DNA of 64,000 bases from Burkholderiales bacterium (GCA_035649175.1 DASRKB010000237.1:676-64675); one strand, 5' to 3'; counted from the stretch's first letter, positions 21,957-56,722 are shown. Notes: generated by a model from the letters alone, not told the origin. Translations and numbers: made by a program.

Positions 21957-21983
21957 CCGGGAAAACGAGGCCTGTCCCTGTTT

Positions 21984-23383: not shown

Positions 23384-25278
23384 TGGTCCCTCGGTGACTG
23401 TAGCGGTAGGGTTATCGTGAATGCCGAGCCCTTGCCGGGCGCGCTCTCGACGCGGATCGTGCCGCCGTGCAGCTCGACGAAGCGCTTGGTGAGCACGAGG
23501 CCAAGGCCGGTGCCTTCCGCCTTGCGAGTGCTGTCGCGCCCCACCTGCCGGAACTCCTGAAACAGCGCGGCCTGATCCTCGGGCGTCATGCCGGCACCGG
23601 TATCGCGCACCGTGATCTCGGCCGCCTCGTCCCGCAGCCGCGCCGATACGATGACCGTGCCGCCTTCGGGGGTGAACTTCACCGCGTTGGAGAGCAGGTT
23701 CAGCATGATCTGCTTGACCTTGCGCTCGTCGCCGATGACGCTTCCGATGCCCGGCGGGATGTCGATCTGCAGTCGCACGCCATGCCGCTGCGCCCGCTCC
23801 TTGACAAGCGAGGCGGCCCGCTCGATCGCCGTGGCAAGGGCGAACTCCGAGAGATCGAGTTCCATTCGCCCGGCCTCGATCTTGGACAGGTCGAGGACGT
23901 CGTTGATCAGGGAAAGCAGATGCTGTCCGGACTCGAGAATATCCGTCACGTACTCGGCCTGCTTGGCATTGAGCTCGCCGAACATACCCTCCTTAAGGAC
24001 CTCCGAGAACCCGATGATGGCGTTGAGCGGCGTTCTCAGCTCGTGCGACATATTGGCGAGGAACTGGCTCTTCTCTCGGCTTGCCGCCTCAGCCTGCTCC
24101 CGCGCGCGCTGCAGATCGAGCTCGGCGAGCTTGCGACGCGTGACATCGGTGATGGCTCCGATCATCTTGATCGCACGCCCATGCGGATCTCTCAAGGCGA
24201 TGGCGCGGTCGACGATCCACCGGTATCCACCGTCCGTGGCGGCGATGCGGTACTCGTGCTCGAGCCTCGGAGTCAACCGCTTGAAGTGCGCGCCAATCGC
24301 GCGGCGGTAGCCGTCGAGGTCGTCCGGATGCACCAACTCGGTCCAGACCCTGGCGGTCTGCTTCCCGGCAGGCCGGAAGAACTCCCTGGCATTCTCGGTG
24401 ATGAGAAGCTCATCGGTTGCGATGTCCCATTCGTAGATGCCTTCCGTGGCTACGCTCGTCGCGGTCGAATAGCGCTCCTCGCTCTGCCGCAGCGCTTCCT
24501 CGGTCCGCTTGAGCCGGCTGATGTCGCCCGTGGAGCCGATCATGCGCACCGCGCGCCCGGCGGCGTCGCGCTGCGCGATTCCGTGCTGGCGTGCCCAGCG
24601 CCAGCTCCCGTCCTCGGCGCGGTAACGGAACTCGCACTCGAAGCGCTCGGTCCCGCCTTTGAAATGAGCGATCAGTGCGGCGTCATAGCGCGTCCTGTCC
24701 TCGTCATGTATGCGTTGGTGCCAGTCGGCCGCCGTGCGCATATGCTCGGGGGACAGGCCGAGCATATGGATTACGCGCTCGGAGTAGTAGATGCTGTTGT
24801 TGGCAATATCCCAGTCGTAGATGCCCTCGCGCACGGCCTGCAGGGCGAGGTCGTAACGCTCCTCGCTGCGCCGCAGCGCCTCCTCGGTCTTCTTGAACTC
24901 CGTGATGTCGCCGATCGATCCGACCACGCGCGCTGCACGGCCGCGTGCGTCGCGCAAGGCGATGCCGTGCTGCCGGCACCAGCGCCATTCTCCGCTGCGC
25001 GCTCGATAGCGATAATCGCATTCGATGCGCGGCGTTCGCGCCTCGACATGCGCGCGGAACACGTCCATGTAGTGAGCGACATCCTCGGCATGAATGAGAC
25101 TGCGCCAGTCCTTTGCCGTCTGCATGAACGCCCGGTCCACATCCAGGACGTCGTAGACGCGCTCGGAGTAGTAGATGTGGTCCTCTGCCACGTCGTAGTC
25201 GTAGATTGCCTCGTTGATCGCTCGCATGGCGAGCGCATAGCGCTCTTCCGACTCGCGCAGCTGGCTGAGATCGCTCAT
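23380..25278 (-). CDS. cytoplasmic sensor histidine kinase: three tandem PAS domains + HisKA + HATPase_c, 632 aa
   Basis: Track ORF 23380..25278. Three units of about 124 aa each begin SEERY(A/D/S)LA...EGIYDWDI and end GRA.R..GS.GDI(T/S). Then come the H-box [21 protein letters not shown] and the HATPase motifs. Confidence 0.92.
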   Translation of the reverse strand: [632 protein letters not shown]

Positions 25279-28211
25279 GACCTCCCCGTCGGAAAGACCA
25301 CCGTGAAAGTGGAGCCTTTGCCGGGCGAGCTGTCGAGCCGGATGGCGCCGCCGTGCAGCTCGACGAAGCGCTTCGTCAACGCGAGTCCAAGCCCCGTGCC
25401 TTCGGCCTTGCGCTTGGAGTCGCGCCCGACCTGCTTGAACTCCTCGAACACCGACGCCTGGTCCTCGGAGGCAATGCCGATGCCCGTATCCTTCACCGCG
25501 ATCTCCACCTTGTCGGTGTCGAGCCTCGCGGCCACGTCCACCCTTCCGCCATCGGGCGTGAACTTCACGGCGTTGGAGAGCAGGTTGAGCAGGATTTGCT
25601 TGAACTTGCGCTCGTCGGCGCGCAGTTCGCCCAGGCGCGGGTCGACCTCGAGCCCGAGCGCGATGCCGTGGCGCTGCGCACGCTCGCGCACGAGCGTCAT
25701 GGCGTTGGAGAGGGCTGAGGGCAGGTCGAAGTTAGAAAGCTCGAGGTCCATGCGCCCCGCCTCGATCTTCGAGAGGTCGAGGATGTCGTTGATGAGCGAG
25801 AGCAGGTGCTTGCCCGACTCGTGGATGTCCTTGAGATAGTCGAGCTGCTTCTCGTTCACCTCGCCGAACATCCGCTCGATCAGCACCTCCGAGAAGCCGA
25901 TGATGGCGTTGAGCGGCGTCCTCAGCTCGTGCGACATGTTGGCGAGGAAGTCCGACTTGTGCTTGTTCGCCACCTCGAGCTGCGCGCTCTTCTCCTGGAT
26001 CTCGCGGAACAGGCGCACGTTCTCGATGGCAATCACCGCCTGATCGGCGAAAACGCGCACAAGCTCGATCTGCTTCGCTGTGAAGGGCCGGGCCTCACCG
26101 CTGCGGGAGAGCGTGAGCACGCCGATCGGCTCGCCGTCGCGCAGCATCGGCACAGCGAGAATGCTGCGGTAGTTGCCGGCCTGCATGATATCGTGGCGCC
26201 CGTATTGCGGGTCGGCGGCGACGTCGGGAATGTGCACCGTCACTCCGTCGAGCACGGCGCGCCCGGTGGCAGAGGCACGGTCGAGCCTGATCGGCGCGCG
26301 GTCGAACACCCCACGCGTCGCGTCGCCCGGCTGCTGCGCTTCGTCGGCCACGGCGAAGGCCATCGGCACGTACTCGGCCCGCTCGTTGGGCCGGAAGAGG
26401 AAGCCGCGATCGGCCTCGCAGAGCTTGCGCGCCTTGGCGAGCACGATCTCGAGTACGGGCTGCAGGTCGAACGTCGTGCGGCTGATCACTTTCAGGATCT
26501 CGGAGGTCGCGGTCTGCTGCTCGAGCGACTCCTTGGTCTCGTTGAAGAGCCGCACGTTCTCGATGGCGATCACCGCCTGGTCGGCGAAGGTGCGCAGCAG
26601 GGCCATCTGCTTGTCGCTCAGCGGCCCGGGCAGCACACGGCTCACGCTGATGGCGCCGATGGCCGTCCCGCCGCGCAGCATGGGTATGATGGTCATGGCG
26701 CGCGAGCCGCTATCGATGAAGTTCCGAAGCCCCGGCGCGATCGAGGGCTCGTCATGGAGCAGCGCGTCATGCACGTCGATCACGCGGTGGTCGAGGATGG
26801 CAGTCGAGTGCATGTACTCGCGGGTCAGCGGGACGGGAAAGCGCGAGCGTATCGCCTCGGCTTCCGCGGGCTCGCGGGCGGCGACCGCGGCGGCGCGCAC
26901 GTGCGCGCCCTCGGGGAGAGCGACCATCACGGTCGCCTCTGGGAAAAGCTTCAGCCCGCTCTGCACGATGGCCTCGAACACCGGCTGCGTGTCGGTGGTC
27001 GAGCTGCTGATGACCTTGAGGATCTCCGCCGTCGCCGTCTGCTGCTCGAGCGCCTCCTGCAGCTCCGCGGTGCGCGCCTCGACCTTCCTCTCCAGGCCGG
27101 CGTAGGACTCCCGCAGCCGGGCGCTCATCTGGTTGAACTCGTCGGCAAGCGCCTCGAGCTCGTCGCCGGTCTTCACCTCGATTTTCTGCTCGAGCTCGCC
27201 CGCCCCGATGCGCGCGGCGCCGTCGCGCAGGGTGCTGATCGGGCGCGCCATGCTGCGCGCGAGCCACATGGCCGCGAAAGCCGAGAGGAGAAGGCCGGCG
27301 AAGAGGAGGAGGATCGTGCGCAGGATCGCGGCGTCGAGGGACGCGAAGACTTCGGAGACCGGCTGCTCGGCGAAGACTCTCCACCCCAGCGGGTCGATCG
27401 GCGCATAGGCCGTCAGGACCCGGCCCCCGCCGAGGTCCTGGGAAAGCATGGCGGGCGAGCCGCCGGGATCGGGGGCGAGCGAGCGCTTCACGTGCTCGAG
27501 GCTCGAGAGGTCGGTCTTGCGCAGCACGAGCCCGATGTCGGGATCGGCCACGAGGTGGCCGGTCGAGTCAACCACGTAGGCCTTGCCCTTCTCGCCGATG
27601 CGAATGCGGGTCAGGACGTCCCAGATGAACTTGAGGTTGATCTCGCCCACGGCGACCGGGCCGCCTGGGGTGGAGCGGGTGGCCATGACGATGTAGGGCT
27701 CGGTGTCCTTGCGGAAATAGACCTCCCCGAACCACGTCTGCCCGGGTTTCGCGTCCCGGAAAGCCGGCTCCTGCGAGCGATCGCGGCCGCTGTCCACGAC
27801 GTTCATCGAGAGCCGCGACACGAACAGCTGCTCGCGCCCCGCGCGGTCGATGTAGTAGATGTCCGTGACGGCCTCGGCGATACGCAGGAGCTTCTCGAAC
27901 TCGGTCTTGCGCTGCGCCGCGCCCTCGGCCGCGAGCTGGTGAAGCGCCGCGAACTCGAGCTGCCGGTCGATCTGGCGCACGAACTGCTCGATGCGCGCGG
28001 CCGCCGCGCCGGCTTTCTCGCGCTGCAGGCTGGCGAGCGCGGCTTTATTTTCCTCGTAGGAAAAGTACAGGCCGATGCCGCCCGAGATCACGAGCGTACC
28101 GCAGACCAGCGCGAGGATGAGGAGGAGGTACTTGCGGAACAACCGCCCGCGGTGCAGTCGCCGCGCCGCGGCGTGCTCCCCAATCGCGAGATCCGTCGGC
28201 TTCAGGCGCAT
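25275..28211 (-). CDS. membrane sensor histidine kinase: TM - periplasmic Cache-like domain - TM - HAMP - 2 GAF - HisKA - HATPase_c, 978 aa
   Basis: Track ORF 25275..28211. TM1 is [23 protein letters not shown], followed by a periplasmic region of about 250 aa. TM2 is [19 protein letters not shown]. HAMP is [39 protein letters not shown]. Two GAF units carry the same linkers as the 10-GAF kinase. The transmitter is nearly identical to that of 15963..21956. Confidence 0.9.
   Translation of the reverse strand: [978 protein letters not shown]
25891..26009 (-). repeat. 119-nt segment identical to 16573..16691
   Basis: See the partner feature. It encodes the end of the last signalling helix and the H-box. 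Confidence 0.8.
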
Positions 28212-34500: not shown

Positions 34501-35925
34501 ATGCTGATCCGAGACAAGCTCTTCATCGACGGCCAATGGGTCGGCCCTTCAAGCAGCGAAACGATCGATGTGCACGACGCCGGCAACGGCAAGGTCATGG
34601 GACGCATCCCCGCCGGCGCCGAGAAGGACGCCGAGGCTGCGGTCCGGGCCGCCCGGTCGGCGCTCGAGACATGGAAGGACATTCCCGTCGAAAAGCGGGC
34701 CGAATACCTCGACAAGATCTCCTCCGGCCTGAAGGCGCGCGCCGACGAGATCGCGCGCACCATCGCGCGGGAAGTCGGCATGCCGCTCAAGATGGCCTCG
34801 CGCATCCAGGCCGGGCTTCCGATTGCGAACTTCGCGAACTACGCGAAGCTCGTGAAGGAGTTCAAGTTCGAGGAGAAGGTTGGAAATTCCCTCGTAGTGC
34901 GCGAGCCGGTGGGCGTGGTGCTCGCCATCACGCCCTGGAACTACCCCCTGCACCAGATCGCCCTGAAGGTGGCGCCGGCGCTCGCGGCCGGCTGCAGCGT
35001 GGTGCTCAAGCCCTCGGAGGTCGCGCCGTTCAACGCCTTCATCCTCGCCGAGGTGATCGAGGCGGCCGGGCTGCCCAGGGGCGTCTTCAACCTCGTCACG
35101 GGCACCGGTCCCGCCGTGGGCGAGGCGCTAGTAAAGCATCCCGACGTCGACATGATCTCCTTCACCGGCTCGACGCGCGCGGGCAAGCGGATCTCCGAGC
35201 TCGCCGCGCAGGGCGTCAAGCGGGTAGCGCTCGAGCTGGGTGGCAAGAGCGCCTCGTTGATCCTGGACGACGCGGACCTCGCGCAGGCGGTGAAGGGCAC
35301 GGTGAATGGTTGCTACCTGAACTCCGGCCAGACGTGCACCGCGCTCACCAGGATGCTGGTGCCCGAGAGCCTCTATCCGGAGGCGGCAAGGCTCGCGGGC
35401 GAGGCTGCGAAGAGTTTTGCCGTGGGTGATCCATTGAATGAGAACTCCAGGCTGGGCCCGCTCAGCTCCCAGGCGCAGCTCGAGCGCGTACGCGGATACA
35501 TCAAGAAGGGAATCGCCGAGGGCGCCGAGCTCGTCGCGGGCGGCGCCGAGCCGCCCGAAGGCGTGCCTGCCGGCGGCTACTACGTGCGCCCGACGGTGTT
35601 CGGCAAGGTGAAGAACAGCATGACCATCGCGCAGGAGGAGATTTTCGGGCCGGTGCTCTCCATCATCCCCTACAAGGACGAGGAAGATGCGGTGCGCATC
35701 GCGAACGACACGGTGTACGGGCTTGCCGGCGCAGTGTGGTCCAAGGACGACGCGCGCGCGCAGCGCGTGGCGCGCCGCATGCGCGCGGGGCAAGTCGACG
35801 TGAACGGCGGCGCGTTCAACATGAACGCCCCCTTCGGCGGCTTCAAGCAATCCGGCCACGGCCGCGAGGCCGGCGTGTACGGGCTCGAAGAATTCCTGGA
35901 ATATAAAGCCCTGCAACTAAAGTGA
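34501..35925 (+). CDS. NAD(P)-dependent aldehyde dehydrogenase, 474 aa
   Basis: Track ORF 34501..35925. [18 protein letters not shown], catalytic Cys region [19 protein letters not shown]. An AGGAA RBS is present. Confidence 0.93.
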
Positions 35926-37577
35926 GATTGCTGCGCCTCGCCACCGGACTGGTGGTCGCGGCGTTCGTCGTCGGGCACTTCCTCAACCACGCGCTCGGCG
36001 TGGTCTCGATCGAGGCAATGAACGGCATGCGCTCCGCCCTGGCCGCGGGGTGGCGCAGCCTGCCGGGCACGATCCTGCTGTACGGCTCGCTCGCCACGCA
36101 TTTCGCGCTCGCGCTCGTATCGCTCTACCGGCGCAGCACGCTGCGCATGCCGGCCTGGGAGGCCGGGCAGCTGCTGCTCGGGCTCGCGATCCCGCCGATG
36201 CTCATCGGCCACGTCGTCGGTACGCGGCTCAGCTGGACGCTCTACGGCCACCACATCGACTACGAGCGCATCGTGGGGCTGCTCTGGTCGGACTCGACCG
36301 CTGCGGCGCGGCAATCGGCGCTCCTCCTGGTCGTGTGGATGCATCTTTCGTTCGGCGTGCACTACTGGCTGCGGGTAAAGGCCTGGTACCCCACGGTGCA
36401 GCCGGTGCTCTTCGCCGCGGCGCTTCTCATCCCCGCCATCGCGCTCGCCGGCTTCGCCGCGGCAGGTGCGAGCCTGTGGCCCGGCATCGAGGCGGTGGGC
36501 GGCATGCAGAAGTACAACCTCGACCTCGCCGGGATGACCGACGCGCAGCGCGCGCGCCTCGTTCACTGGCGCGAGGGGATGACGTGGGGCTTCTGGCTGC
36601 TCCTCGGGGCGACGCTGCTCGCGCGCTGGCTGCGCCAGCGCATCGGCGGGACCTACCAGGTGCGCCACGCCTCCGGCCGCGTCATTACCGCGCCCGTCGG
36701 CCGCACCATCCTCGAGGCGATCCGCGACGCCGGCATCCCCCACGCCTCGGTCTGCGGCGGCCGCGCGCGCTGCACCACCTGCCGCGTGCGCGTCGGCGAA
36801 GGGCTCGCCGCGCTGCCGCCGCCGCGGCCGGCGGAGGCGCGCGCACTCGGGCGCATCGAGGCGCCGCCGAACGTGCGCCTCGCCTGCCAGTGCCGGCCGC
36901 GCACCCACGTCGCCGTCACCCCCCTTCTGCCCGCCGGCGCGGACGCGGCGCTCGCGCGCAACCCCCGCAGCCCGCGGGGGCAGGAGCGGCGCATCGTCGC
37001 CATGTTCGTCGACCTGCGCGAGTCGACCGAGCTCGCCGAGGGACGCCTGCCCTACGACGTGGTCTTCCTCATGAACCAGTTCTTCGCCGAGATGTACCAG
37101 GCGCTGCGGGCGACCAATGGCTACTACGCGCAGTTCCGCGGCGACGGCCTGCTCGCGCTCTATGGCCTCGGAGCCGAGCCCGCGCAGGCCTGCCGGGACG
37201 CCATCGCCGGCGCGGCCGAGATGCAGCGACGGCTCGAGGCGCTCAACGCGAGCCTCGCCGCCGACCTCGCGCGCCCCCTGCGCATCGGCATCGGCGTCCA
37301 CGTCGGCCTCGCCATCGTCGGCACGATGGGCCCGCCGGACGCGCCGATCCACTCCGCGATCGGCGACAACATCAACATCGCGGCGCGCCTGGAAGGCATG
37401 ACGAAGGCGTACGGCTGCGTGCTGGTAATTTCCGAGGACACGCTGACGGAGGCGGGGGTGGAACCGCGCGGCGCGACTTTGCACCGCGTGCGCGTGCGCG
37501 GCAGGAACGAGCGGCTCAGCGTGTACGCCGTCCAGGATCCGCGCATGCTCACGTCGGTCCGGCAAATCGGGGTCTGA
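35922..37577 (+). CDS. membrane protein - [2Fe-2S] ferredoxin domain - class III nucleotidyl cyclase fusion, 551 aa
   Basis: Track ORF 35922..37577, with a GTG start and a GTGA overlap with the ALDH stop. The N-terminal 240 aa or so has 5-6 TM segments with several His (H19, H23, H60, H97, H110/111, H141, H147). The Fer2 domain reads [13 protein letters not shown]...LACQC. The CHD reads [13 protein letters not shown]...[14 protein letters not shown]...[16 protein letters not shown]. Confidence 0.88.
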
Positions 37578-37587: not shown

Positions 37588-38037
37588 CTACTTTCCCGAC
37601 AGGGTGCGCGAGAGCTGGTTGGTCGTATTGGCGAGGCGAGCGGCGAGCACGCGGATCAGCTCGAGCGCGGCGTCGGGGTTCTCGCGAATCACCTGGGAGA
37701 AAAGATCCTTGGAGATTCTCAGGGTCTCGAGCGCGGTGAGCGCCTTGGCGGTGGCGGTGCGCGGCACCTCGCCGAAGATGGCGATCTCGCCGATGATGTC
37801 GTTGCGGCCGAGCTTGTTGACCACCAGTGGGCCGCCGGGGGTGGGCACGCTGATCTCCACTTCGCCGTCGATCACGATGTAAGCGGCATCGCCCATGTCC
37901 CCGGCGTTGAACATCACCTGCCCGGGGGCGTAGGAGAGCCGCTCGGCGGAGAACACCAGCAGCTTCTGCATCGCCGGCTGGATCTTGCTGAAGATCGGGA
38001 ACTGGCGGATCAGCTCGACTTCCTGCTCCAGGCTCAT
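37588..38037 (-). CDS. stand-alone cyclic nucleotide-binding domain protein, 149 aa
   Basis: C-terminal part of track ORF 37588..38151, from the ATG at 38037 (MSLEQEVELIRQFPIFSKI...). The CNB core is GDAAYIVIDGEVEI...IIGEIAIFGEVPRTATAKAL (Arg93-Thr94 phosphate-binding cassette). ATGA overlap with the ABC gene stop. Confidence 0.88.
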   Translation of the reverse strand: MSLEQEVELIRQFPIFSKIQPAMQKLLVFSAERLSYAPGQVMFNAGDMGDAAYIVIDGEVEISVPTPGGPLVVNKLGRNDIIGEIAIFGEVPRTATAKALTALETLRISKDLFSQVIRENPDAALELIRVLAARLANTTNQLSRTLSGK

Positions 38038-40688
38038 GCGGCAGTCCTCCTCTTCAGCTCCGTGAACTTGCCCTGCTCCGCGAGGCGCCCACGTTCCATC
38101 ACCAGCACCATGTCGAAGCGCTCGGCGTACTCCTCGCGCGAGAGCGCCCATACCACCCCGGCGCCCCTGCGCTCGGCGAGCACGTTGTCGACCACGCGGC
38201 CCTGCGAGGCCGGGTCGAGCAGCGCGCCCGCGTGGTCCAGGACGAGGAGCACCGGGCGCTTGAGCAATGCGCGCACCAGCGCGACCTTCTGCCGGTCGGA
38301 CGGCGCCAGCCGCGCCCCGCCGACGCCTACGTGATAGCCCAGTCCGTTCCTCACCACCAGCGGCCGCAGGCCAAGCTCGTCCAGCAGCTCCCGCATCAGC
38401 GTCGTGATCCGCTGCACGGCGCCCGCCTGGCCGGTCACGATCTTGCCGAACAGGATGTTGTCCTGCAGGGTCGCGGCCCTGTTGTAGCGCGTCGGGTCGA
38501 AAAACTCCACCGCGTCGCGCATCCCGGCAGGCAGGTGACGCGCGAAGTGGTGGCGGGCCTCGACCACGCGAGCCTCGAAGCTCTCGTCGATGAGCCCGAG
38601 GCGGTGGCGCGCGGCGATGAGGCGGAAGGGCAGCGCGAGCAGCAGGCGCCGTTCGGCCTCCTCGATGCCACGCAGGCCGGCCTCGGTGACGCGCTTCAGG
38701 ATAGCCTCGAACTGCGGCAGGTCCTCTTGCCGGATGAAGCTGTACTGCGCGAAGAACTCGTGGCCGGGTGGCAGGCCGCTGAAGAGCTCGACCATGGTCT
38801 CGGCCACCTTGTGCCCGGTGCGCAGCACGAGGTCGTGCAACCCCGTGTCGTGCAGCACCTGGCGCACGTAGGCGTTGCCGGCGAGGTTCTCGATGTCGAA
38901 GGTGCGTCCGACCGGGGTGCCGAACAGCAGGTTCTCGGCGAGCGTCGCGTTGCGGTTGTAGTGCGCCGGGTCGAAGCGCTCGACCCAGTCCTCGATGCTC
39001 TGGGAAGCAAGGCGCTCGCGCATCTTCTGCCGCGCGGAAAGCACCTTCCCGGAGAATTGGTCGGAGTCTGCGGTGCTGCGCAAGCCGAGCTCGAACACAG
39101 TCTCCTCGAGCTCCACCACGCGCAGCAGCTCGACGATACGCGCCTCCATCTCATCCGTGCTGCCCACCCCGGCCGCGGCGTAGTCGATCCACTCGGCGTT
39201 GATGTCGAGCGGCGAGTTGCCGGTGCGCAGCGCCTCGCGCGCCTCTGCCTCGCGCGCCCTGCGCCTCGCGGCGTCGTGCTCGGGCTCGCGGATCGGCCGG
39301 TGCTTCAGGCCGTAAAGGATGTTCGAGCGCACGTCGGCGGGAAAGAGGTATGCGGGCGTGCCGACGTAGCCGATGGCGCGTCCGGTCACCGCCTCGGGGG
39401 CGCGGGTGATGTCGATGCCGCCCATCTCGATGGCGCCGCTCGTCGGCGGGTAGAGTCGCGCCACGAGCTGCGCGAGCTCGGTGGCGCCCGCGCCACTCTG
39501 CCGCGAAACGATGGCGACGTGCGAGCCAAGATCCGCCTCGAAGGAGACGTTGTCCACCACCCGGCTGCCCGCCTCGTCGACGAAGGTGAGGCCCGTGGCC
39601 CGCATCCGCCCGGCCCGGGGTAGCGGCGGATCCTCGGCGGGCGCCTGCAGCTCCGCCGGGGCGACGTCCTCCGCGGTGAACTGCTCCACCACCTGGCCGT
39701 ACTTGATCTGCACGTCGAGGCGCTGCTGGTCCCAGTCGATCAGCTCCTTCACCGGCGTGGGCAGGTCCTTGTAGGCGGCGATCACCGCCACGAGCGCGCC
39801 GATGTCGAGCCGGCCGACGATCACCAGGTAGCCGCCCAGCGCATAGAACAGGAAGGGCGTGACCTGCGATAGGAAGTTGTTGAGGAACTTGATGAGGAAT
39901 TTGCGCTGGTAGAACTCGAAGCGGATGCGGAAGATGTGCCCCAGCCGCGCGGAGATCTCGGCGCGCTCGTAGTTGGAGGTGTCGTTGGCGTGGATCTCGG
40001 CGATGCCGTCGACCGACTCGGCGATGCGCCCGGCGAGCGCCCGCGCGGTGAGCTGGCGCTCGCGGCCGAGCACGAGCAGGCGCCGGCGCAGCCGCGGGAT
40101 CAGGTACGCCTGCACGCCCACCACCCCCAAGGCGGTCAGGCCGAGCGCGACGTGCTGGTACAGGATGAAGACCATCGCGGTGAGCGCCTGCCCGCCGAGG
40201 AAGAGCGGCGTGATGAGCGCCTCCCCGACGAACCCGCCGAGCGGCTCGACCTCGTCCTTGATCATGGTGGCCATTTCGGCGGCCTTCACGCGCCGGAAGC
40301 GCTGCAGCGGGAAGCGCAGGATGTAGTCGAACAGCGCATAGCGCAGCCGCCGCAGCATGCGCTCGCCCATCCAGCCCTTCATGGTGTTGATCTGGAACTT
40401 GAGCCAACCGTTCAGCACGATCAGGCCGAGGAACACCGCGCTCAGCGCGAAGAGATAGGGAATCCGCTCGAGCGCCAGCCCCAGGAAAGGGACCTTGGCG
40501 TCGGGGCTCGGGAACGCGTCGCCCTGGATCGCCTGGTTGATGATGGTCTTGGGTAGGTCGAGGGAAAGGTAATAGACGACCATGGTCGCGAGCACCAGCG
40601 GCACGATGAGCAGCTGGTCGCGCTTGCTGTAACGCAGGATGAAACCGAAAAGGCTTCGATCCACCTTGGATCCCCGGGGAACGCACAT
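38034..40688 (-). CDS. atypical ABC exporter-like protein: 6-TM ABC membrane domain + degenerate, internally duplicated nucleotide-binding domain, about 884 aa
   Basis: Track ORF 38034..40796, with the start placed at ATG 40688 (MCVPRGSKVDRSLFGFILRYSKRDQ...). A GTG 8 codons downstream is also possible. The TMD resembles type I ABC exporters. In the NBD, the Walker A position reads SRQSGAGAT (nt 39480-39506), the signature position reads LAPSD (38295-38309), and Walker B reads LLVLDH (38232-38249). An insert of about 270 aa (38502-39305) carries a second degenerate helical-subdomain copy. Confidence 0.8.
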   Translation of the reverse strand: MCVPRGSKVDRSLFGFILRYSKRDQLLIVPLVLATMVVYYLSLDLPKTIINQAIQGDAFPSPDAKVPFLGLALERIPYLFALSAVFLGLIVLNGWLKFQINTMKGWMGERMLRRLRYALFDYILRFPLQRFRRVKAAEMATMIKDEVEPLGGFVGEALITPLFLGGQALTAMVFILYQHVALGLTALGVVGVQAYLIPRLRRRLLVLGRERQLTARALAGRIAESVDGIAEIHANDTSNYERAEISARLGHIFRIRFEFYQRKFLIKFLNNFLSQVTPFLFYALGGYLVIVGRLDIGALVAVIAAYKDLPTPVKELIDWDQQRLDVQIKYGQVVEQFTAEDVAPAELQAPAEDPPLPRAGRMRATGLTFVDEAGSRVVDNVSFEADLGSHVAIVSRQSGAGATELAQLVARLYPPTSGAIEMGGIDITRAPEAVTGRAIGYVGTPAYLFPADVRSNILYGLKHRPIREPEHDAARRRAREAEAREALRTGNSPLDINAEWIDYAAAGVGSTDEMEARIVELLRVVELEETVFELGLRSTADSDQFSGKVLSARQKMRERLASQSIEDWVERFDPAHYNRNATLAENLLFGTPVGRTFDIENLAGNAYVRQVLHDTGLHDLVLRTGHKVAETMVELFSGLPPGHEFFAQYSFIRQEDLPQFEAILKRVTEAGLRGIEEAERRLLLALPFRLIAARHRLGLIDESFEARVVEARHHFARHLPAGMRDAVEFFDPTRYNRAATLQDNILFGKIVTGQAGAVQRITTLMRELLDELGLRPLVVRNGLGYHVGVGGARLAPSDRQKVALVRALLKRPVLLVLDHAGALLDPASQGRVVDNVLAERRGAGVVWALSREEYAERFDMVLVMERGRLAEQGKFTELKRRTAA

Positions 40689-40728
40689 CTTACAGTCCCT
40701 GACGGGATTTGCCGCTATAGTTGGACGC

Positions 40729-41556
40729 ATGGACCCCGCTTTCAGCGTGCGCTTCTGGGGCGTGCGAGGCTCGATCGCTTGCTCCGGCCCGCGCACCGCC
40801 CGCTACGGCGGCAACACCTCGTCGCTCGAGGTGCGCTGCGGCGAGCGGCTGCTCCTCTTCGACGCCGGCACCGGCATCCGCTACCTGGGCAAGACCCTCG
40901 AGGGAAAGAGGCTCGACGCCGATCTCTTCTTCACCCACACGCACTTCGACCATATCTGCGGCCTGCCTTTCTTCCGGCCGTTCTTCGAGTCGGGCAACCG
41001 TTTCCGGCTCTGGGCCGGGCACCTCGACGGCCGGCAGGTCACGCTGAAGCGCGTGCTGGCCGAGTTCATGATGTCGCCACTGTTTCCGGTGCCGCCGGAG
41101 ATCTTCCACGCGCGGATGGAGTACCGCGACTTCAAGAGCGGGGACACGCTCCACCCCGCCGATGGCTTCGTCGTGAGAACCGCGCCGCTCAACCACCCCG
41201 ACGGAGCCACCGGATACCGGGTCGAGTACGGGGGGAAGTCGCTCTGCTACGTCACCGACACCGAGCACGTGCCTGGCAATCCCGACCGCAACGTTCTCGG
41301 CCTCATCGCCGGCGCGGACCTCGTGGTCTACGACTGCATGTACACCGACGAGGAGTACCCGCGCTTCGCCACCTGGGGCCACTCCACCTGGCAGGAAGGG
41401 GTGCGTTTGTGCCGCGAGGCCGGCGCGAAGCGCCTCGTGGTCTTTCACCACGAGCCAGACCACGACGACGACATGCTCGACGGCGTCGCGCGAGAAGTGG
41501 ACAGGGCGCTTCCGGGGTCGCTCGTGGCCAAGGAAGGCCTGGTTCTCGAGCCGTAG
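40729..41556 (+). CDS. metallo-beta-lactamase-fold hydrolase (HxHxDH), 275 aa
   Basis: C-terminal part of track ORF 40639..41556, from the ATG at 40729 (MDPAFSVRFWGVRGSIA...LLLFDAGTG...FFTHTHFDHICGLPFF...VFHHEPDHDD). It is divergent from the ABC gene, with 40 bp between the two starts. Confidence 0.85.
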   Translation: MDPAFSVRFWGVRGSIACSGPRTARYGGNTSSLEVRCGERLLLFDAGTGIRYLGKTLEGKRLDADLFFTHTHFDHICGLPFFRPFFESGNRFRLWAGHLDGRQVTLKRVLAEFMMSPLFPVPPEIFHARMEYRDFKSGDTLHPADGFVVRTAPLNHPDGATGYRVEYGGKSLCYVTDTEHVPGNPDRNVLGLIAGADLVVYDCMYTDEEYPRFATWGHSTWQEGVRLCREAGAKRLVVFHHEPDHDDDMLDGVAREVDRALPGSLVAKEGLVLEP

Positions 41557-42946: not shown

Positions 42947-44791
42947 GTGGCCAGTCGTAGTCCGTTCGCGGCGAATAGCGCGCCCCACGAGACCGAGGCG
43001 CGTGCTCCCGCCCTCACCGCGCTTCTATCGGACTGGTACTGGGAGCAGGACGAGCAATCCCGCCTCACCTTCATTTCAGAGGGACTCGCCGGCAAGACCG
43101 GTCTCGACCCGGCTGCATTCCTCGGGCAGGCCCGCTGGGAATACCCCGCCGCCAACATGACCGACGCCGACTGGGCGCGCCACCGCGCCCAGCTCGAGCG
43201 CCGCGAGCCCTTCCGCGACCTGGAGCTCAAGCGGGTGTTTCCGAGCGGGCGGGCAGTGTGGATCTCGGTGAGCGGTGAGCCGGTGTTCGACCCCGAAGGC
43301 CGCTTCAAGGGCTACCGCGGCGCCGGCCGGGACATCACTGCGCAGAAGCGCCTGGAGGAATTGCTGCGCCTCGAGCACGCGGTGGCCCGGGTGCTCGGCC
43401 AGGCTGCGACCCTCTCCGAGGGCCTGCGCGCCGGGCTGCGGGCGATCTGCGACGCCGAAGGCTGGGAGTACGGGCGCTGCGTGCGCGCGGAAAACGGGAC
43501 GCTCGCGAGGCTCGAGGAGGGCTGGTTCGCCCGCGAGCCGTCGGTCGACCAGTTGCTCCATGGCTCGCGGATCCTGTGGCAGGAAGGCAAGCCCGTGTGG
43601 TCGAGCGCTCCTGTCGTCGGCGGCGGCAACTTCGCCACCTTCGCCTTCCCCGCGGTCTCCCAGGGCAAGACCATCGCGATGCTCGTCTTCTCGGGCCACG
43701 GCGCGCCCGAGCCCGACCGCAGCCTGCTCGAGGCGACCCCGGCGATCGGCGGACTGTTCGGCCAGTTTCTCTCGCGCATGGAGGCCGAGGAGTCGCTGCG
43801 CCAGAGCGAGGCGCGCTTCCGCGGCCTCACCCATATGTCGTCCGACTTCTTCTGGGAAAGCGACGCCGAGCACCGCTTCACGAGCATCGTGCACGGCCCC
43901 AACTACGCCGCCGCCCAGCTCGGCCGCGACATGATCGGGCAGGCCCCCTGGGCCGTGGCCTCGCTAAGCCCCGACGCCGCAGGCTGGGCGGCACACCGCG
44001 GCGTGCTCGCGAGCCACCTTTCGTTCCGGGACTTCGAGTTCTCACGGATGATGCCCGACGGCGGCACGCGGCACTTCGCCCTGAGCGGCGAGCCGCGCTT
44101 CGACGGCCAGGGAAGGTTCACCGGCTACCGCGGCGTGGGGCGCGACGTCACGGAGATCGCGCAGGCGCGCGAGCGCATCGCCTTGCTCGCCTACAGCGAC
44201 GCGCTGACCGGGCTCGCCAACCGCATCAGCCTCGGGCCCGCGCTAGAGCAGGCGATCGAGCGCGCGCGCCGGCGCAATGGCAGGCTTGCCGGGGTGTTCG
44301 TTGACCTGGACGGTTTCAAGGCCGTGAACGACCAGCACGGCCACGCCGCGGGTGATGCATTCCTCGTGGAGGTCGGCAGGCGCCTGCGCCGCTCGCTGCG
44401 CGCGAGCGACCTGATCGCGCGCCTGGGCGGCGACGAGTTCTTCGTGCTGCTCGAGGACGTGCGCGACACCGCGACCGTGGAGCGCGTCGTCGGCAAGCTG
44501 GTGAAGGAGCTGCTGCAGCCCTTTGAGGTCTCGAGCGGCGTGCGCCTGCGCGTGTCGGCGAGCATGGGCGTCAGCCTCTATCCGGGCGACGCCATCGACG
44601 CCACCACCCTCGTGGACCACGCCGACAAGGCGATGTACACCGCCAAGAAGGCCGGCAAGAACGCCTACTGCCTCTATGCCGGCAGCGGCACCGGAAACCC
44701 TGCGAGCCACAGCGCACCGATCGACCCCGGCACGGTGAAGATTCCCATCGGGCCGCCGTCCACCGGCATCCCGCCGAGCGTGCGCCAGTAA
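42947..44791 (+). CDS. PAS - GAF-like - PAS - GGDEF diguanylate cyclase, 614 aa
   Basis: Track ORF 42947..44791 (GTG start). Two PAS-like units end in GRFKGYRGAGRDIT and GRFTGYRGVGRDVT. The GGDEF domain reads SDALTGLANR...VDLDGFKAVNDQHGHAAGD...RLGGDEFFVLL...MYTAKKAGKN. Confidence 0.88.
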   Translation: MASRSPFAANSAPHETEARAPALTALLSDWYWEQDEQSRLTFISEGLAGKTGLDPAAFLGQARWEYPAANMTDADWARHRAQLERREPFRDLELKRVFPSGRAVWISVSGEPVFDPEGRFKGYRGAGRDITAQKRLEELLRLEHAVARVLGQAATLSEGLRAGLRAICDAEGWEYGRCVRAENGTLARLEEGWFAREPSVDQLLHGSRILWQEGKPVWSSAPVVGGGNFATFAFPAVSQGKTIAMLVFSGHGAPEPDRSLLEATPAIGGLFGQFLSRMEAEESLRQSEARFRGLTHMSSDFFWESDAEHRFTSIVHGPNYAAAQLGRDMIGQAPWAVASLSPDAAGWAAHRGVLASHLSFRDFEFSRMMPDGGTRHFALSGEPRFDGQGRFTGYRGVGRDVTEIAQARERIALLAYSDALTGLANRISLGPALEQAIERARRRNGRLAGVFVDLDGFKAVNDQHGHAAGDAFLVEVGRRLRRSLRASDLIARLGGDEFFVLLEDVRDTATVERVVGKLVKELLQPFEVSSGVRLRVSASMGVSLYPGDAIDATTLVDHADKAMYTAKKAGKNAYCLYAGSGTGNPASHSAPIDPGTVKIPIGPPSTGIPPSVRQ

Positions 44792-48892: not shown

Positions 48893-50727
48893 GCCGCCCT
48901 CACGTAGTGTCCGTTGCCCACGTGCTGGAGCGCGGGTCGCCGGTTGGTATCGATGCGGAACTCGCCCGGCCAGGCGGCCGGGTCGGAGGCCTTGCCCTCC
49001 ATCAGGGCGTTGAAATCGAGCTTCTTCTCGACGCTGGGCTCGGGAACCGCGGCGAGCAGCGCCTGCGTGTAGGGGTGGCGCGGGTTGCGGAACAGCGTCG
49101 CGGCGGGCGCGATCTCGACCAGGCGTCCGGCGCACATGACCGCGATGCGGTCGGCGAGGTAGTTCACCACCGCGAGGTTGTGCGAGATGAAGATGTAGGT
49201 GAGGCCGAGCGCGGCGCGCAGGTCGGCGAGCAGGTTGAGCACCTGCGCCTGCACCGAGACGTCGAGCGCCGAGACCGGCTCGTCGAGCAGCAGCAGCTCC
49301 GGCCCGAGCGCGAGCGCACGCGCGATGCCGATCCTCTGACGCTGCCCGCCGGAGAAGCTGTGCGGATAGCGGCGCAAATGGCGCACGTCCAGGCCGACGA
49401 GCGCCATCATCTCCTTCACGCGCTCGAAGCGCTCCTCGGGGTCCCCGACCTTGTGGATCACCAGCGGCTCGCTCACGATGTCGTAGGCCGTCATGCGCGG
49501 GTTGAGCGAGCTGAAGGGGTCCTGGAACACGAACTGAACCTGGCGGCGGTAGGCAAAAAGCTCCTCGCCCTTCATCTCCAGGATCTTTCTGTTCTTGAAA
49601 AGAATCTCCCCGGCATCCGGCGCCACGGAGCGCAGGATCATGCGCGCGGTCGTGGTCTTGCCGCAGCCCGACTCCCCCACGATGCCCAGGCACTCGCCGG
49701 CGCGCACGTCGAAGGAGACGTCGTCGACCGCGAGGAGCTCGGCCGCGGGGCCGCCGAACATTCCCCGCTTGCGGATCGCGTAGCGCTTGGTGAGGTTGCG
49801 CACCTCGAGGAGCTTGCCGCGCGGCTCCTCGAACAGCTTCTTCCCCTTCATGATGTGCGAGCCCTCGATCTGTACCTCGCGGATCGGCGTAAGGCGCTCG
49901 TCCGCGGCCATGCCGAAGCGCGGCACGGCGCGCATCAGCGCCCGGAGATACGGATGGCGCGGGTCGCGGAAGATGTCGGCAATCGCTCCCGACTCCATGA
50001 CGCGCCCGCGGTACATGACCACCACCTCGTCGGCCATGTTCGCCACCACGCCGAGGTCATGGGTGATCAGCATGACCGTCATGCCGAGCTCGGCCTGGAG
50101 CTGCTTGATGAGCTGGAGGATCTGCGCCTGGATGGTGACGTCGAGCGCGGTGGTGGGCTCGTCGGCAATGAGCAGCGCCGGCCGGCAGACGAGTGCCATC
50201 GCGATCATGGCGCGCTGGCGCAGGCCGCCGGAAAGCTCGAAGGGGTACGTGTGCTCGGCCTTGACCGGGTCGGGGAACCCCACCAGGCGCAGCATCTCGA
50301 TCGTCGCGGCCATGCGCTCGCGGCGCCCGAGGTCCTCGCGGTGCAGGCCGAGCGCCTCGCCAACCTGGTTGCCGATGGTATGCAGCGGGGAAAGCGCCGT
50401 CATCGGCTCCTGGAAGATGATCGAGATGCGCCCGCCGCGAATGTGCTGCATGGCGCGGCTCGCGGGCGGGATTCTCGCGATGTCGACCTCGGCGCCCTTG
50501 GCTTTGGGATCGCGGAACAGGATTTCGCCGTCCGTGATGCGCGCGATGCGGGGCAGGATGCCCATGATCGATTGCGCGACGACCGACTTGCCGGACCCCG
50601 ATTCGCCGACGAGCGCGACCGTGCCGCCCTCGGGAACGCGAAAGGATACGCCGTCGACGGCCTTCACGGTGCCGGCATCGACGGCGATGTGCACCTTCAG
50701 GTCCCGTACGGCAAGCAGGTCAGCCAT
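48889..50727 (-). CDS. fused double ABC ATPase (YejF/DppDF-like), 612 aa
   Basis: Track ORF 48889..50727. It has two complete NBDs: GESGSGKSV...LSGGLRQR...[12 protein letters not shown] and GESGCGKTT...FSGGQRQR...[12 protein letters not shown]. Confidence 0.92.
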
Positions 50728-51421
50728 GGCCCGCGGCAGTATACGAGAAGAGCTCCGGCGCGCTGGCCCAGCGCACGCCCTCTACGCGCGAAAGCCGCTC
50801 GAGGAAACACCACGCGGCCTCGTCGTGCACCGCATGATGCGTGAGCCAGCCGACCGGGTTGGTCAGGCCCATAAGCTCGGTCGCGGTGGCGAGCGCCTGC
50901 TCCTCGCCGATGAAGCGCCTGCCCTCGCGCCAGGCCACGATGTCGATGTGCGTGTTGACCTGCCGCAGGCCCCGAACCGGCTTCGCCGCGCCATCCCGGC
51001 TCAATCCGGTGAAGCCGGCCTGTGGGAGCGACTCGGCGAGGCTCTCGCGGATGCGATTCCACGGCGGCACGAGCACCGGCAGCGCCCGCTCGCCCGCGAG
51101 CTTCTTCAGCCGCTGCGCCGCAGCGGACAGCCGCTCGAGAGCGCGCGCGTCGGGCTCCGAGGCCGGGAATTCGGTCTTCTTCTCAGCCGGACCGGCGCGG
51201 TTGCGGTGGTCGGCACCGTGCTGAAGAACGCTCACGCTGTCCCGCAGGAGATGGAAGAGCTCCGGGACCGCGAGCTGCGGCACGACCGCGAGTGCAAGCG
51301 GCACCTGAAAGCGCATCAGGCGCTCGAGGGCGGGCGTGGGCAGCGCGGCGTCGTCGTCGCGCCACCAGAACGACACGCCACCGCGGATCCGGATCGCTTC
51401 CTCGAGGCGCGCCCAGCTCAT
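50720..51421 (-). CDS. divergent polysaccharide-deacetylase-like protein (DDD ... HGADH motifs), 233 aa
   Basis: Track ORF 50720..51421. FWWRDDDA and LQHGADHRN resemble NodB-type motif 1 (xDD) and motif 2 (HxxxH). The assignment is tentative. Its 3' end overlaps the ATPase start by 8 nt, and there is an ATGA overlap with the upstream GT stop. Confidence 0.5.
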   Translation of the reverse strand: MSWARLEEAIRIRGGVSFWWRDDDAALPTPALERLMRFQVPLALAVVPQLAVPELFHLLRDSVSVLQHGADHRNRAGPAEKKTEFPASEPDARALERLSAAAQRLKKLAGERALPVLVPPWNRIRESLAESLPQAGFTGLSRDGAAKPVRGLRQVNTHIDIVAWREGRRFIGEEQALATATELMGLTNPVGWLTHHAVHDEAAWCFLERLSRVEGVRWASAPELFSYTAAGHG

Positions 51422-52515
51422 GCGACCCAGCGCGCCACGAGCTCGGCGCTACGGCTGGCGCCGTCGAGGTCGATGTCGCTCGCCTGCGGACGCGGACGAG
51501 CCATCGCCTCGTCCACGGCGGCTGCCAGAGCCGCCGGAGAAAGATCTCTTTCTTCCAGGACGGCCACAAGTCCCCTGTCTGCGAAAAGCCGGGCCCGCAT
51601 TCCCTGCTCCGTCTCGCTCCCCTGCGAGAAAGGCACCACCACGGCCCGGGTCCGGGCCTGCAGCGTCTCCAAGAGCGTGTTGTAACCCGCCTGGCTCACC
51701 GATAGCTCGCAATTCCGGAGCAGCGTCGCGAAATCGATCCGGGCGCGCTCGATGATCACGCCGCTCCGCGGCTCTACCCCCTCCAGGCTTGCATTGATAC
51801 CGCCCAGCAGCCGCCAGGTCCGGTCGCGGAGCCGCGTAAGCGGCCGGGCGACGAGCGCCGTCTCCAGTAGGCGCCGCCCCACGGCTCCGCCGCCTGCCGA
51901 CACGAGCACCTCGCCCCGCCCTGCGTCACCGGCGACGGGCGCCTCCTCGACGACATAGCCAGTATAAAAGAGCCGGTCCGCTAGTTGGGCCGCCGCGGAA
52001 AAGCTCATCTCGAACGGCGCGATGTCGGGGTCGCCGTGGACGAGGACCTTGTGGAAATGCGCCTCGATGAGCCCAACGGCCGCCGCCTCCCGCTCGGGAC
52101 GCTTCTGCAGGATATCCCGCACCGAGCAGATGACCAGCGCGCCGCGCGCCGCCTCGAGGAGCGGCAGGAGCTCGAACCGAAGCTGGCGCCGGCCGAAGGG
52201 AAAGAGCTCGACAATCAGGACATCGGCCCCGGCGGCGCGCCATGCCTCGAGCAGCATTTCCTTTCTTCTCTCCTTCCAGGCCTCGCCGATCGGCCGCCCG
52301 GCTTCGTCCACGAAGGTCTTGAACGCCGCGTCGGCCGCCGCCATGGGGGGAAGCTGCACCCGCTTTCCGGGAAACGACAGCGCCGGGACCGGCGCGCCGC
52401 CGCTCGCGAGCGTCACGTCGAACCCCGCCGCGGCGAGCGCGCGGCACAAAACCACCGCGCGCTTCAGGTGGCCGATGCCCAGGAGGTGCTGCACGTGGAA
52501 GAAAACCCGCTTCAT
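51418..52515 (-). CDS. GT-B fold glycosyltransferase (GT28/MurG-like, COG4671-type; GIGHLKR motif), 365 aa
   Basis: Track ORF 51418..52515. The N-terminal FFHVQHLLGIGHLKR and C-terminal SQAGYNTLLE motifs are shared with the paralog at 55422..56651. Confidence 0.7.
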   Translation of the reverse strand: MKRVFFHVQHLLGIGHLKRAVVLCRALAAAGFDVTLASGGAPVPALSFPGKRVQLPPMAAADAAFKTFVDEAGRPIGEAWKERRKEMLLEAWRAAGADVLIVELFPFGRRQLRFELLPLLEAARGALVICSVRDILQKRPEREAAAVGLIEAHFHKVLVHGDPDIAPFEMSFSAAAQLADRLFYTGYVVEEAPVAGDAGRGEVLVSAGGGAVGRRLLETALVARPLTRLRDRTWRLLGGINASLEGVEPRSGVIIERARIDFATLLRNCELSVSQAGYNTLLETLQARTRAVVVPFSQGSETEQGMRARLFADRGLVAVLEERDLSPAALAAAVDEAMARPRPQASDIDLDGASRSAELVARWVA

Positions 52516-53111
52516 TCCCGGAGTTCGGGGTCAGACACCGAACCGCTCACATTGAGTTGCTTGACCCGAATATTGGCCCGCCCGTCGACCTCGAAGAGCT
52601 GCACCGCCGCGCGGTCGAGCTTCGCGGGGGGCCTGCCGAGCATGTCCCAGCCGGTCGCAGCGGCGAGCACCACGCGGATCACGCCGCGGTGGGTGATCGC
52701 GAGCGTAGGCTCGCGCTGCTCCTTCAGCCACGCGCTCGCCCGCCGCATCACGTCCCTCGGACTCTCGCCGCCGGGCGGGCGGAAGTCGAGGCCGCGGTCT
52801 TCGTTCTCGCGGAACGATTGCCCCAGGGACTCGCGGAGATCCTTCAGGAGGCCGCCCTGCCAGGCGCCCCAATCCATCTCCATGAGCCGCGGCTCGCGCG
52901 GCGCGTTGGGAAAGCCGAGCAGTGCCGCGGTCTCCACGCAGCGCAGGAGCGGGCTCGTCACGACGCGCATGCCGCGGCACGCCGCCGGGAGCTTCGTCGC
53001 GCGCGCCGCGGCGCGGCCCGCGTCCGAAAGCGGAACGTCGGTTTGCCCCTGGATGCGCCCTTCGGCGTTCCACGCCGTCTCGGCGTGCCGCAGGAGAGCG
53101 ACGACCGTCAC
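52512..53111 (-). CDS. histidine phosphatase family protein (phosphoglycerate-mutase-like), 199 aa
   Basis: C-terminal part of track ORF 52512..53318, from the GTG at 53111 (VTVVALLRHAETAWNAEGRIQGQTDVPLSDAG...), which carries the RHGE-type catalytic motif (RHAE). GTGA overlap with the upstream GT stop. Confidence 0.8.
   Translation of the reverse strand: MTVVALLRHAETAWNAEGRIQGQTDVPLSDAGRAAARATKLPAACRGMRVVTSPLLRCVETAALLGFPNAPREPRLMEMDWGAWQGGLLKDLRESLGQSFRENEDRGLDFRPPGGESPRDVMRRASAWLKEQREPTLAITHRGVIRVVLAAATGWDMLGRPPAKLDRAAVQLFEVDGRANIRVKQLNVSGSVSDPELRE
52523..52543. repeat. REP-like palindrome copy (GTTCGGGGTC-A-GACACCGAAC, 1 mismatch) inside the 3' end of the histidine phosphatase gene
   Basis: It has the same GGGGTC(A/T)GACCCC core as 37566, 41568 and 57506. 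It encodes the last residues (..SGSVSDPELRE) of the protein. Confidence 0.6.
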
Positions 53112-56651: not shown

Positions 56652-56722
56652 GGGTCCCCCTTGTGGGGCCCGATTGTGAGCCGGGCCGGCGGGATTGCGC
56701 AAGCCGGGGGTACGATAGCGCC

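Follow-up and report, generated by a model that had tools for sequence, protein, structure and literature searches.

An ABC-exporter-fold protein with a non-canonical nucleotide site, a tripled helical-subdomain unit and a cyclic-nucleotide-binding partner in a Burkholderiales bacterium

This report concerns two overlapping genes in a stretch of 64,000 nucleotides from a Burkholderiales bacterium (GCA_035649175.1 DASRKB010000237.1:676-64675), one encoding a membrane protein with the fold of an ATP-binding cassette (ABC) exporter and the other a small protein with a cyclic-nucleotide-binding (CNB) domain. The whole stretch is called the window, its positions are counted from the first letter, and its GC content is about 68%. 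The ABC gene lies at 38034-40688 on the minus strand, stop codon included, and encodes 884 amino acids (aa). It was identified from its open reading frame (ORF), Pfam, an AlphaFold2 (AF2) model and Foldseek, and the GC content at third codon positions (GC3) is 0.92 in this ORF, a bias as in a real gene. The second gene, at 37588-38037 on the same strand, encodes a stand-alone protein of 149 aa recognized by the Pfam model cNMP_binding, named for cyclic nucleoside monophosphates (cNMP). The TGA stop of the ABC gene and the ATG start of the CNB gene share the letters ATGA (38034-38037), and the junction reads …GCATGAGC…. The initial annotation had reported this overlap and taken the genes to be translationally coupled. 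The overlap was reproduced, and it is present in the window and in its three nearest relatives; elsewhere a spacer of 40-300 bp separates the two genes.

The 884-aa protein has the fold of a type IV ABC exporter. Pfam ABC_membrane matches aa 81-304 (E = 7e-15), ABC_tran matches with the first 80 of its 137 positions only (aa 379-490), and the NCBIfam exporter models align in two pieces that flank aa 470-738. The top NCBIfam matches are models of the MsbA, HepA and ChvA/NdvA types, all scoring far under their cut-offs (159 against 602 for MsbA). The AF2 model, built from a 62-sequence alignment, has a mean predicted local distance difference test score (pLDDT) of 87.2 and a predicted template modelling score (pTM) of 0.84. 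The transmembrane domain (TMD), delimited by DSSP on this model and by ABC_membrane, occupies aa 13-337 (39678-40652, minus strand) and consists of six long helices at aa 13-54, 75-125, 136-174, 183-227, 238-290 and 296-337. Both the TMD and the coupling regions are typical of exporters, and the coupling-region residues are conserved. Foldseek with the whole model retrieved TmrAB, PCAT1, MsbA, Rv1273c/72c and the cyclic-glucan transporter Cgt, with a probability of 1.00 for TmrAB, MsbA and PCAT1. The query TM-score in these matches to type IV exporters is only about 0.4, which agrees with the fact that about a third of the query, an insert, has no counterpart in the targets.

The insert comprises 268 aa (aa 462-729; 38502-39305, minus strand) and follows directly upon the string SNILYGL (aa 455-461) in the nucleotide-binding domain (NBD). 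The initial annotation had described this NBD as internally duplicated, pointing to the strings FDPAHYNRNATLAENLLFGT and FDPTRYNRAATLQDNILFGK, and both strings were found again, at aa 572-591 and aa 730-749. BLASTP of the insert against the C-terminal part of the protein gives E = 6e-13 at 37% identity over 84 aa, so the internal repeat lies far beyond chance. The number of copies, however, has to be revised from two to three. When the family alignment was split into three blocks and their profiles were compared by hhalign, block 2 (aa 546-700) matched block 3 (aa 701-812) with 99% probability (E = 5e-18), block 1 (aa 436-545) matched block 3 with 96% (E = 4e-9), and blocks 1 and 2 matched each other with 90.6% (E = 1e-6). 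The repeated unit spans the Q-loop into the helical subdomain and follows the pattern '…Y/F-x-(Q-loop position)…-[DE]N-[IL]-L-[FY]-G – linker – helix – GL…'. By BLASTP and hhalign, the insert takes in the remainder of copy 1, the complete copy 2 and the first part of copy 3, and it is from copy 3 alone that the signature-like motif and the Walker B strand continue. The pLDDT of the insert is mostly above 90 in the full AF2 model and 89.7 when the insert is modelled by itself, and a fold search of the PDB with the insert alone returned nothing significant (best E = 0.23, TM-score at most 0.19). The insert is a real folded domain under selection.

On the two sides of the insert lie the two parts of the NBD, placed by alignment to ABCB4/ABCB1: the N-terminal core (39306-39608, minus strand), and a segment with the rest of copy 3, which forms the structural helical subdomain, and the C-terminal core (38037-38501, minus strand). 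The motifs were assigned from a HMMER alignment to the same two proteins, and in it the strings proposed by the initial annotation, all of which were reproduced exactly at their coordinates, sit opposite the canonical motifs. The degenerate Walker A reads SRQSGAGATE against the canonical G-SSGCGKST, with Lys replaced by Ala (SRQSGAGAT is aa 395-403, nt 39480-39506). At the Q-loop position (39351-39368), YVGTPA stands against VVSQEP, with Gln replaced by Thr (YVGTPAYLF is aa 441-449). The signature is LAPSD against LSGGQ, with loss of GGQ (aa 794-798, nt 38295-38309), and Walker B is LLVLDH against LLLDE, with the Asp retained and the catalytic Glu replaced by His (aa 814-819, nt 38232-38249). 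To this list is added the H-loop, which reads WALSR (38136-38150) against IAHRL and has lost its His to Ser, a loss beyond those of the initial annotation. The strand-loop-helix geometry of the P-loop is retained in the AF2 model (strand 390-395, helix 402-409).

The same losses recur in the closest relatives. The consensus of 120 relatives at 74-90% identity reads GRP-GSGASE, YVGSPA, LAVAD or LPVAD, and LLVLDQA; His takes the place of Gln after the Walker B Asp in about 24 of the 120, and the H-loop His is found in only 13. Judged from these sequences, the motif loss is a stable state of the clade of the window and not a sequencing accident, and a protein of the window type very probably lacks ATP binding of the canonical style.

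Searched against 1.84 billion cluster representatives (clusters of 50% identity), the insert by itself retrieved 874 of them at E <= 1e-3 and 199 at E <= 1e-30. A scan of GTDB, with one genome per species and the full-length alignment as query, placed relatives in at least 566 stretches, and the locus counts given below rest on the best 80 of these. The best 80 include Burkholderiales, Nitrosomonadales and Rhodoferax, together with many Alphaproteobacteria (Reyranella, Azospirillum, Mesorhizobium, Kiloniellaceae, Dongiaceae and Rhodobiaceae). A wider alignment of 369 members, whose sample is skewed to the beta and gamma clades, was used for conservation. In no member are all ten canonical ATP-site residues present; the best member has seven and the mode is two. 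The Q-loop Gln is kept by 50 of the 369, the first and second Gly of the signature by 7 and 20, and the H-loop His by 29. The ATP-site positions rank 387-782 of 884 in conservation, and the insert residues W500, R553, N586, G590, G625 and R712 stand within the top twelve; selection has thus shifted from the ATP site to the insert.

The substitutions in Walker A (positions 402/403) and Walker B (818/819) co-vary by clade. The beta clade, to which the window belongs, has A-S in Walker A, D-Q/H in Walker B and a signature of the form LxxxD, and the H-loop His is mostly lost. A mainly gammaproteobacterial class, in which the ABC protein is fused to a CNB domain, has R-E with N/S-D/E and L[ST]xxQ; the H-loop His is mostly lost here as well, with His at the aligned position in a minority. 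The alpha clade has K-D/E with N-E and LSxxQ, and about a dozen of the 80 loci hold the H-loop His. The claim of an NBD devoid of every catalytic hallmark thus stands for each motif in the clade of the window, but it does not extend to the alphaproteobacterial relatives, where Lys is retained in Walker A and Glu at the catalytic position, and sometimes His in the H-loop. Where an acidic residue replaces the Walker A Ser/Thr and Asn replaces the Walker B Asp, the two together might form a compensated metal site, and the alpha-type proteins might still bind ATP.

The possibility that the ABC gene is a decaying pseudogene was rejected, given its intact ORF, the GC3 of 0.92, the species-level relatives numbering at least 566, the high-confidence model and the strongly conserved insert. 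Neither the insert nor the family is covered by a Pfam or NCBIfam model, and no solved structure contains the insert. The annotations in the source records are generic, such as 'ABC transporter transmembrane domain-containing protein' or 'putative ABC transport system ATP-binding protein'. Full-text literature searches on CNB/ABC combinations, degenerate homodimeric ABC proteins and CNB-domain ABC exporters gave no description of the family, and a census of signal transduction from 2005 does not mention it.

The genetic coupling of the ABC-fold protein to a CNB domain is strongly supported and obligate. A CNB homologue lies directly downstream and on the same strand in 76 of 76 informative loci, down to an ABC identity of 44%; four of the 80 loci end less than 300 bp from the ABC gene and were left out of this count. 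In other lineages the CNB domain is fused to the C-terminus. All nine of the long family members scanned (1026-1206 aa) carry a C-terminal cNMP_binding domain, and a search seeded with one fusion returned well over 100 ABC-CNB fusions of about 1015-1050 aa, from Xanthomonadales or Lysobacterales and one Rhodospirillaceae where the organism is named. Conservation of the CNB gene across genomes, on which the proposal of the initial annotation depended, is therefore borne out both by adjacency and by fusion. A further class of about 1175-1200 aa has a GGDEF-like domain after the fused CNB domain (P0192, P0214, P0323-P0388); the GGDEF motif of this domain, read by eye in three sequences, has degenerated to AYGDF, DLCRF and SDTMF. 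One family member of 843 aa (P0129) has no TMD: it starts at the NBD, followed by the insert, CNB and a GGDEF-like region, and represents either a soluble form of the module or a gene model cut short.

The 149-aa protein itself matches Pfam cNMP_binding (PF00027) at E = 3e-20 over positions 2-89 of 89. Its phosphate-binding cassette reads GEIAIFGEVPRTAT (37750-37791), and the consensus of the partners is GEI[AG]I..DVPRTAT. The pattern G-E...R-[ST]-A is matched in 68 of the 76 partners; most of the other eight have GD or AE for GE with Arg-Thr-Ala kept, and two have RNA or RVA for RTA. Given this conservation of the cassette, ligand binding by the partners is likely. The relatives of the 149-aa protein in the PDB are the CNB domains of CRP-family regulators, of the regulatory subunit of protein kinase A (PKA-R), of protein kinase G (PKG), and of MloK1 and SthK. 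As a separate observation, the CNB gene is followed immediately, on its own strand, by a small Methyltransf_17 (PF12692) gene in 38 alphaproteobacterial loci (L014-L075). The methyltransferase gene is sometimes duplicated there, and the window lacks it.

A possible source of the ligand lies next to the pair. At 35922-37577 on the plus strand, convergent with the CNB gene across a gap of 10 bp, is a gene for a 551-aa protein with a 2Fe-2S ferredoxin domain and a class III nucleotide cyclase domain (Pfam Fer2 and Guanylate_cyc). The N-terminal stretch of this ferredoxin-cyclase has no Pfam match and reads as hydrophobic by eye, so that the protein is putatively membrane-anchored, and the ferredoxin domain suggests redox control. 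Both metal-binding Asp residues of the cyclase were read by eye as present (FVDL, GDG). The specificity positions, aligned to Cya2 and CyaC, are Gln/Ser, against Lys/Asp(Thr) or Glu/Cys(Gly). Orthologues of the cyclase occur at four of the loci (L001, L002, L004 and L037), and other cyclase genes lie within less than 5 kb at three more (L003, L006 and L017). The ferredoxin-cyclase is likely to be the local source of cNMP.

On the other side of the pair, divergent from the ABC gene, is a gene for a hydrolase of the metallo-beta-lactamase (MBL) fold at 40639-41556 on the plus strand (Pfam Lactamase_B_2), with an intact HxHxDH motif as HTHFDH (40936-40953). The ORF in this form overlaps the start of the ABC gene by 50 nt, and its true start is probably near 40729, since alignments of homologues begin at aa 32-35. 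The hydrolase has weak NCBIfam matches to RNase Z and to a cyclic-nucleotide-degrading phosphodiesterase model, the latter being its sole pointer to specificity, and is a candidate cNMP phosphodiesterase. Fifteen loci have the MBL gene linked to the ABC-CNB pair, in one of two arrangements: in the beta clade it lies upstream and divergent, and in loci of the Mesorhizobium type it follows the CNB gene directly. Loci with the linkage include L057, L064, L073 and L079. The existence of two arrangements points to a functional tie with the pair. In the beta clade a PAS-GGDEF gene (42947-44791 in the window, plus strand) is a conserved neighbour of the ABC gene, placed two or three genes upstream.

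Clustering of all neighbouring ORFs of the 80 loci revealed a further companion, a cluster of genes for glycosyltransferases (GT) of the GT-B fold. It adjoins the ABC-CNB pair in 59 of the 80 loci, in two gene orders, divergent or co-directional. The set consists of two GT28C-like proteins (MJ1255/VC2487 type), two GT4 proteins, a histidine phosphatase (in 34 loci) and a 233-aa protein (in 38 loci). In the window the six genes occupy 50720-56702 on the minus strand, as identified by tblastn with the genes of Reyranella and by Pfam and NCBIfam; the tblastn identities of Reyranella cluster genes against the window are 61, 50, 45 and 24%. All on the minus strand, they encode a GT28C-like glycosyltransferase (55422-56702), two GT4 proteins (54180-55421 and 53108-54208), the histidine phosphatase (52512-53318, with a true start probably later), the second GT28C-like glycosyltransferase (51418-52515) and the 233-aa protein (50720-51421). 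The cluster is co-directional with the ABC gene and about 10 kb away from it, with Opp, GGDEF, DUF445 and MBL genes between.

The products of the cluster give partial hints of their chemistry. The 233-aa protein has no Pfam match, and the motifs DDD and HGxxH, seen by eye, are reminiscent of polysaccharide deacetylase. One GT4 protein scores best, although weakly, against the BshA and MshA models. Sequence searches of the PDB gave no match for the first GT28C-like protein and only generic GT4 relatives, PimB' and MshA, for the GT4 protein. As a set, the glycosyltransferases, the phosphatase and the 233-aa protein recall pathways that combine a glycoside, a phosphatase and a deacetylase.

Further upstream of the ABC gene, the window holds DUF445, the PAS-GGDEF protein and an Opp-type importer. 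Near the ABC gene (±10-12 kb annotated) there is no second gene for a type IV exporter, and none is conserved in the 80 loci. At a greater distance, the window encodes a histidine kinase of 1997 aa (15963-21956, minus strand) with ten tandem GAF domains followed by HisKA and HATPase_c, and after it more sensor kinases at 23380-25278 (with PAS) and 25275-28211 (dCache-HAMP-GAF). The region around 15963-28211 is unusually dense in signalling genes.

What could such a protein do? In the reading that we favour, to which we give an even chance of being right, it is a cNMP-controlled membrane effector of the ABC fold that works without hydrolysing ATP in the canonical way and possibly moves a glycoconjugate. 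The two overlapping genes would encode one machine, in which an exporter-fold dimer carries the small CNB subunit on its cytoplasmic domain. The ATP site has lost residues that canonical binding and hydrolysis of ATP require, and tripling of the helical-subdomain unit has enlarged the helical lobe into a conserved new domain. The cNMP would be made locally, in the lineage of the window by the adjacent ferredoxin-cyclase, and would bind to the CNB subunit, which sits on the enlarged lobes or rearranges them. The CNB subunit would then drive or block the closure of the two cytoplasmic domains and so switch the state of the membrane domain, taking over the role that normally belongs to ATP binding and hydrolysis, and the MBL-fold hydrolase would end the cNMP signal. 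In this scheme we infer the contact between CNB and NBD, cNMP as the controlling ligand, the absence of ATPase activity, and the cargo. The cargo, or the process under control, is probably a glycoconjugate or glycolipid from the companion cluster; this suggestion, which is the weakest step, comes from the glycosyltransferase linkage and from the affinities to MsbA, HepA and ChvA. A more specific form of the reading is more tentative, and we think it possible with the balance against it. It proposes an ATP-independent, cNMP-gated translocator or scramblase on the ABC-exporter fold, in which the CNB subunit with bound cNMP, acting through the tripled lobe, replaces ATP-driven dimerization of the NBDs, and which passes a glycolipid or glycoconjugate made by the cluster.

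Several observations weigh against the favoured reading. The alpha members keep the Walker A Lys and the catalytic Glu, and about a dozen of them the H-loop His as well; the ancestor may therefore still use ATP, with the CNB protein only modulating it. The ferredoxin-cyclase is conserved only among close Burkholderiales relatives, and its specificity pair, Gln/Ser, does not point to a particular nucleotide. Additionally, the glycosyltransferase cluster was absent from two of the three loci inspected in the fused, mainly gammaproteobacterial class, which limits the suggested cargo to the split alpha and beta class. The third of these loci (L084) has a single GT4 gene only, with DAGK_cat (a diacylglycerol-kinase-type catalytic domain), DUF374 and LpxK nearby.

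The main rival explanation retains ATP as the driving force: the nucleotide site of the exporter would have drifted to a chemistry that is non-standard yet works, with the CNB protein as an accessory regulator of an ordinary transport cycle. GSGK and the catalytic Glu are present in many alpha members, sometimes together with the H-loop His, and the clade-wise co-variation of the substitutions resembles compensated change and not random decay. The retained P-loop geometry of the model and the typical TMD and coupling regions fit this explanation as well. However, the clade of the window has stably lost the Walker A Lys, the catalytic Glu, the Q-loop Gln, the GGQ of the signature and the H-loop His, and in canonical exporters a mutation of Walker A or of the catalytic Glu is by itself enough to block function (PMC7756269). 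Furthermore, a complete site is found in no member of the family. A residual ATP cycle is plausible in proteins of the alpha type but less plausible in those of the window type, and as an account of the system we consider it unlikely.

A second explanation reverses the direction of information, which would run from the membrane protein to its soluble partner. The ABC-fold protein would then be a non-transporting signalling scaffold that senses something within the membrane or the state of the glycosyltransferase pathway, and holds or releases the CNB protein or the fused GGDEF-like domain. ABC-fold proteins with regulatory roles do exist, SUR being an example. The degenerate GGDEF-like domain that some relatives add after the CNB domain, and the PAS-GGDEF gene conserved nearby in the beta clade, would also suit such a role. 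On the other hand, a stand-alone CNB protein without an output domain is a poor carrier of a signal, and the TMD keeps the full exporter architecture with conserved residues in the coupling region, so that we regard a scaffold as quite unlikely.

The initial annotation had offered another alternative, that the protein pairs as a heterodimer with a catalytically active ABC half-transporter whose gene lies elsewhere. Exporters that are heterodimeric and have a single degenerate site are common (TmrAB, TM287/288 and Rv1273c/72c), and such exporters are among the top structural matches of the model. In the heterodimers that have been reviewed, however, only one of the two nucleotide-binding sites deviates, and the second remains active (PMC7756269). 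Here a single chain is degenerate at Walker A, the Walker B Glu and the H-loop of its own site as well as in the signature that it lends, so no partner could restore a consensus site, and a second exporter gene is neither conserved in the 80 loci nor near the gene in the window. The heterodimer is accordingly disfavoured, and we hold it to be very improbable. Equally improbable is a Pycsar-like anti-phage module, in which a cyclase triggered by infection would make cNMP and a CNB-linked effector would disrupt the membrane: PADLOC gives domain-level matches (cyclase to PycC at 53 bits, CNB to the CNB part of PycTIR at about 41 bits), the fused forms formally resemble a CNB-plus-membrane effector and the specificity pair of the cyclase is non-standard, but the context beside the glycosyltransferase cluster is stable, syntenic and housekeeping-like across alpha- and betaproteobacteria, the cyclase is not conserved with the ABC-CNB pair, and PADLOC has no meaningful match for the ABC or MBL protein (ABC-mad3 only, at a marginal 18 bits).

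If control of an ABC-fold effector by cNMP is the right reading, it would matter in more than one respect. Apart from CRP-type regulators and a small number of channels and enzymes, few bacterial proteins are known to act as effectors of cAMP or cGMP, and a widespread ABC-fold membrane effector would add a new branch of cNMP output and a new way of energizing or gating the ABC fold. A homodimeric exporter fold with both sites non-canonical would go beyond what has been described, an active site paired with a degenerate one, and the family would be a natural test of what the ABC fold achieves when canonical ATP hydrolysis is missing. An envelope glycoconjugate, possibly under the control of cNMP, is suggested by the co-conserved glycosyltransferase cluster. 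The constant linkage to CNB makes the hypothesis directly testable, and culturable hosts exist in Azospirillum, Mesorhizobium and Reyranella.

Among known systems, the closest in architecture are the type IV (type I exporter) half-transporters MsbA, NdvA/ChvA (Cgt), TmrAB and PCAT1, which share with the present protein a six-helix TMD with long intracellular extensions, followed by an NBD. The neighbouring glycosyltransferases recall the exporters of glycans and lipids in particular. The present protein differs from all four in that the catalytic motifs are replaced, an insert of 268 aa splits the NBD, and a CNB partner is obligate. Non-consensus residues at the Walker B Glu, the H-loop and the signature are also known from TM287/288, TmrAB, BmrCD, Rv1273c/72c, CFTR and TAP, in which the degenerate site is structural or regulatory (PMC7756269). 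In those heterodimers one site remains catalytic and the degenerate motifs are divided over the chains, whereas here one chain has them all and presumably forms a homodimer with both sites non-canonical.

CFTR offers a likeness of another kind, as an ABC-exporter fold that has been repurposed and opens under the cAMP pathway. Its control is indirect, through phosphorylation of the R domain by protein kinase A, and ATP binding at the NBDs is needed. It has no CNB domain and no comparable insert, and the ABC-CNB protein is known here from its genes and not as a channel. The channels MloK1 and SthK carry a C-terminal CNB domain on a membrane protein, as do the fused relatives with an intact cassette, but they have the tetrameric fold of potassium channels and not that of an ABC exporter. 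The combination of an ABC exporter with CNB is also met in the cyanobacterial-type bacteriocin exporters that have a cNMP-binding accessory protein or an N-terminal CNB domain (TIGR03796, TIGR03797 and TIGR03896). The 884-aa protein scores 135.5, 106.5 and 42.5 against these models, far below their respective cut-offs of 853, 709 and 161, and neither in the protein nor in its neighbourhood in the window was a peptidase domain, an HlyD partner or a precursor peptide seen. The bacteriocin exporters of this system have canonical NBDs. What is new in the present family is that a new domain, a non-canonical site and a cNMP sensor come together on an ABC-exporter fold.

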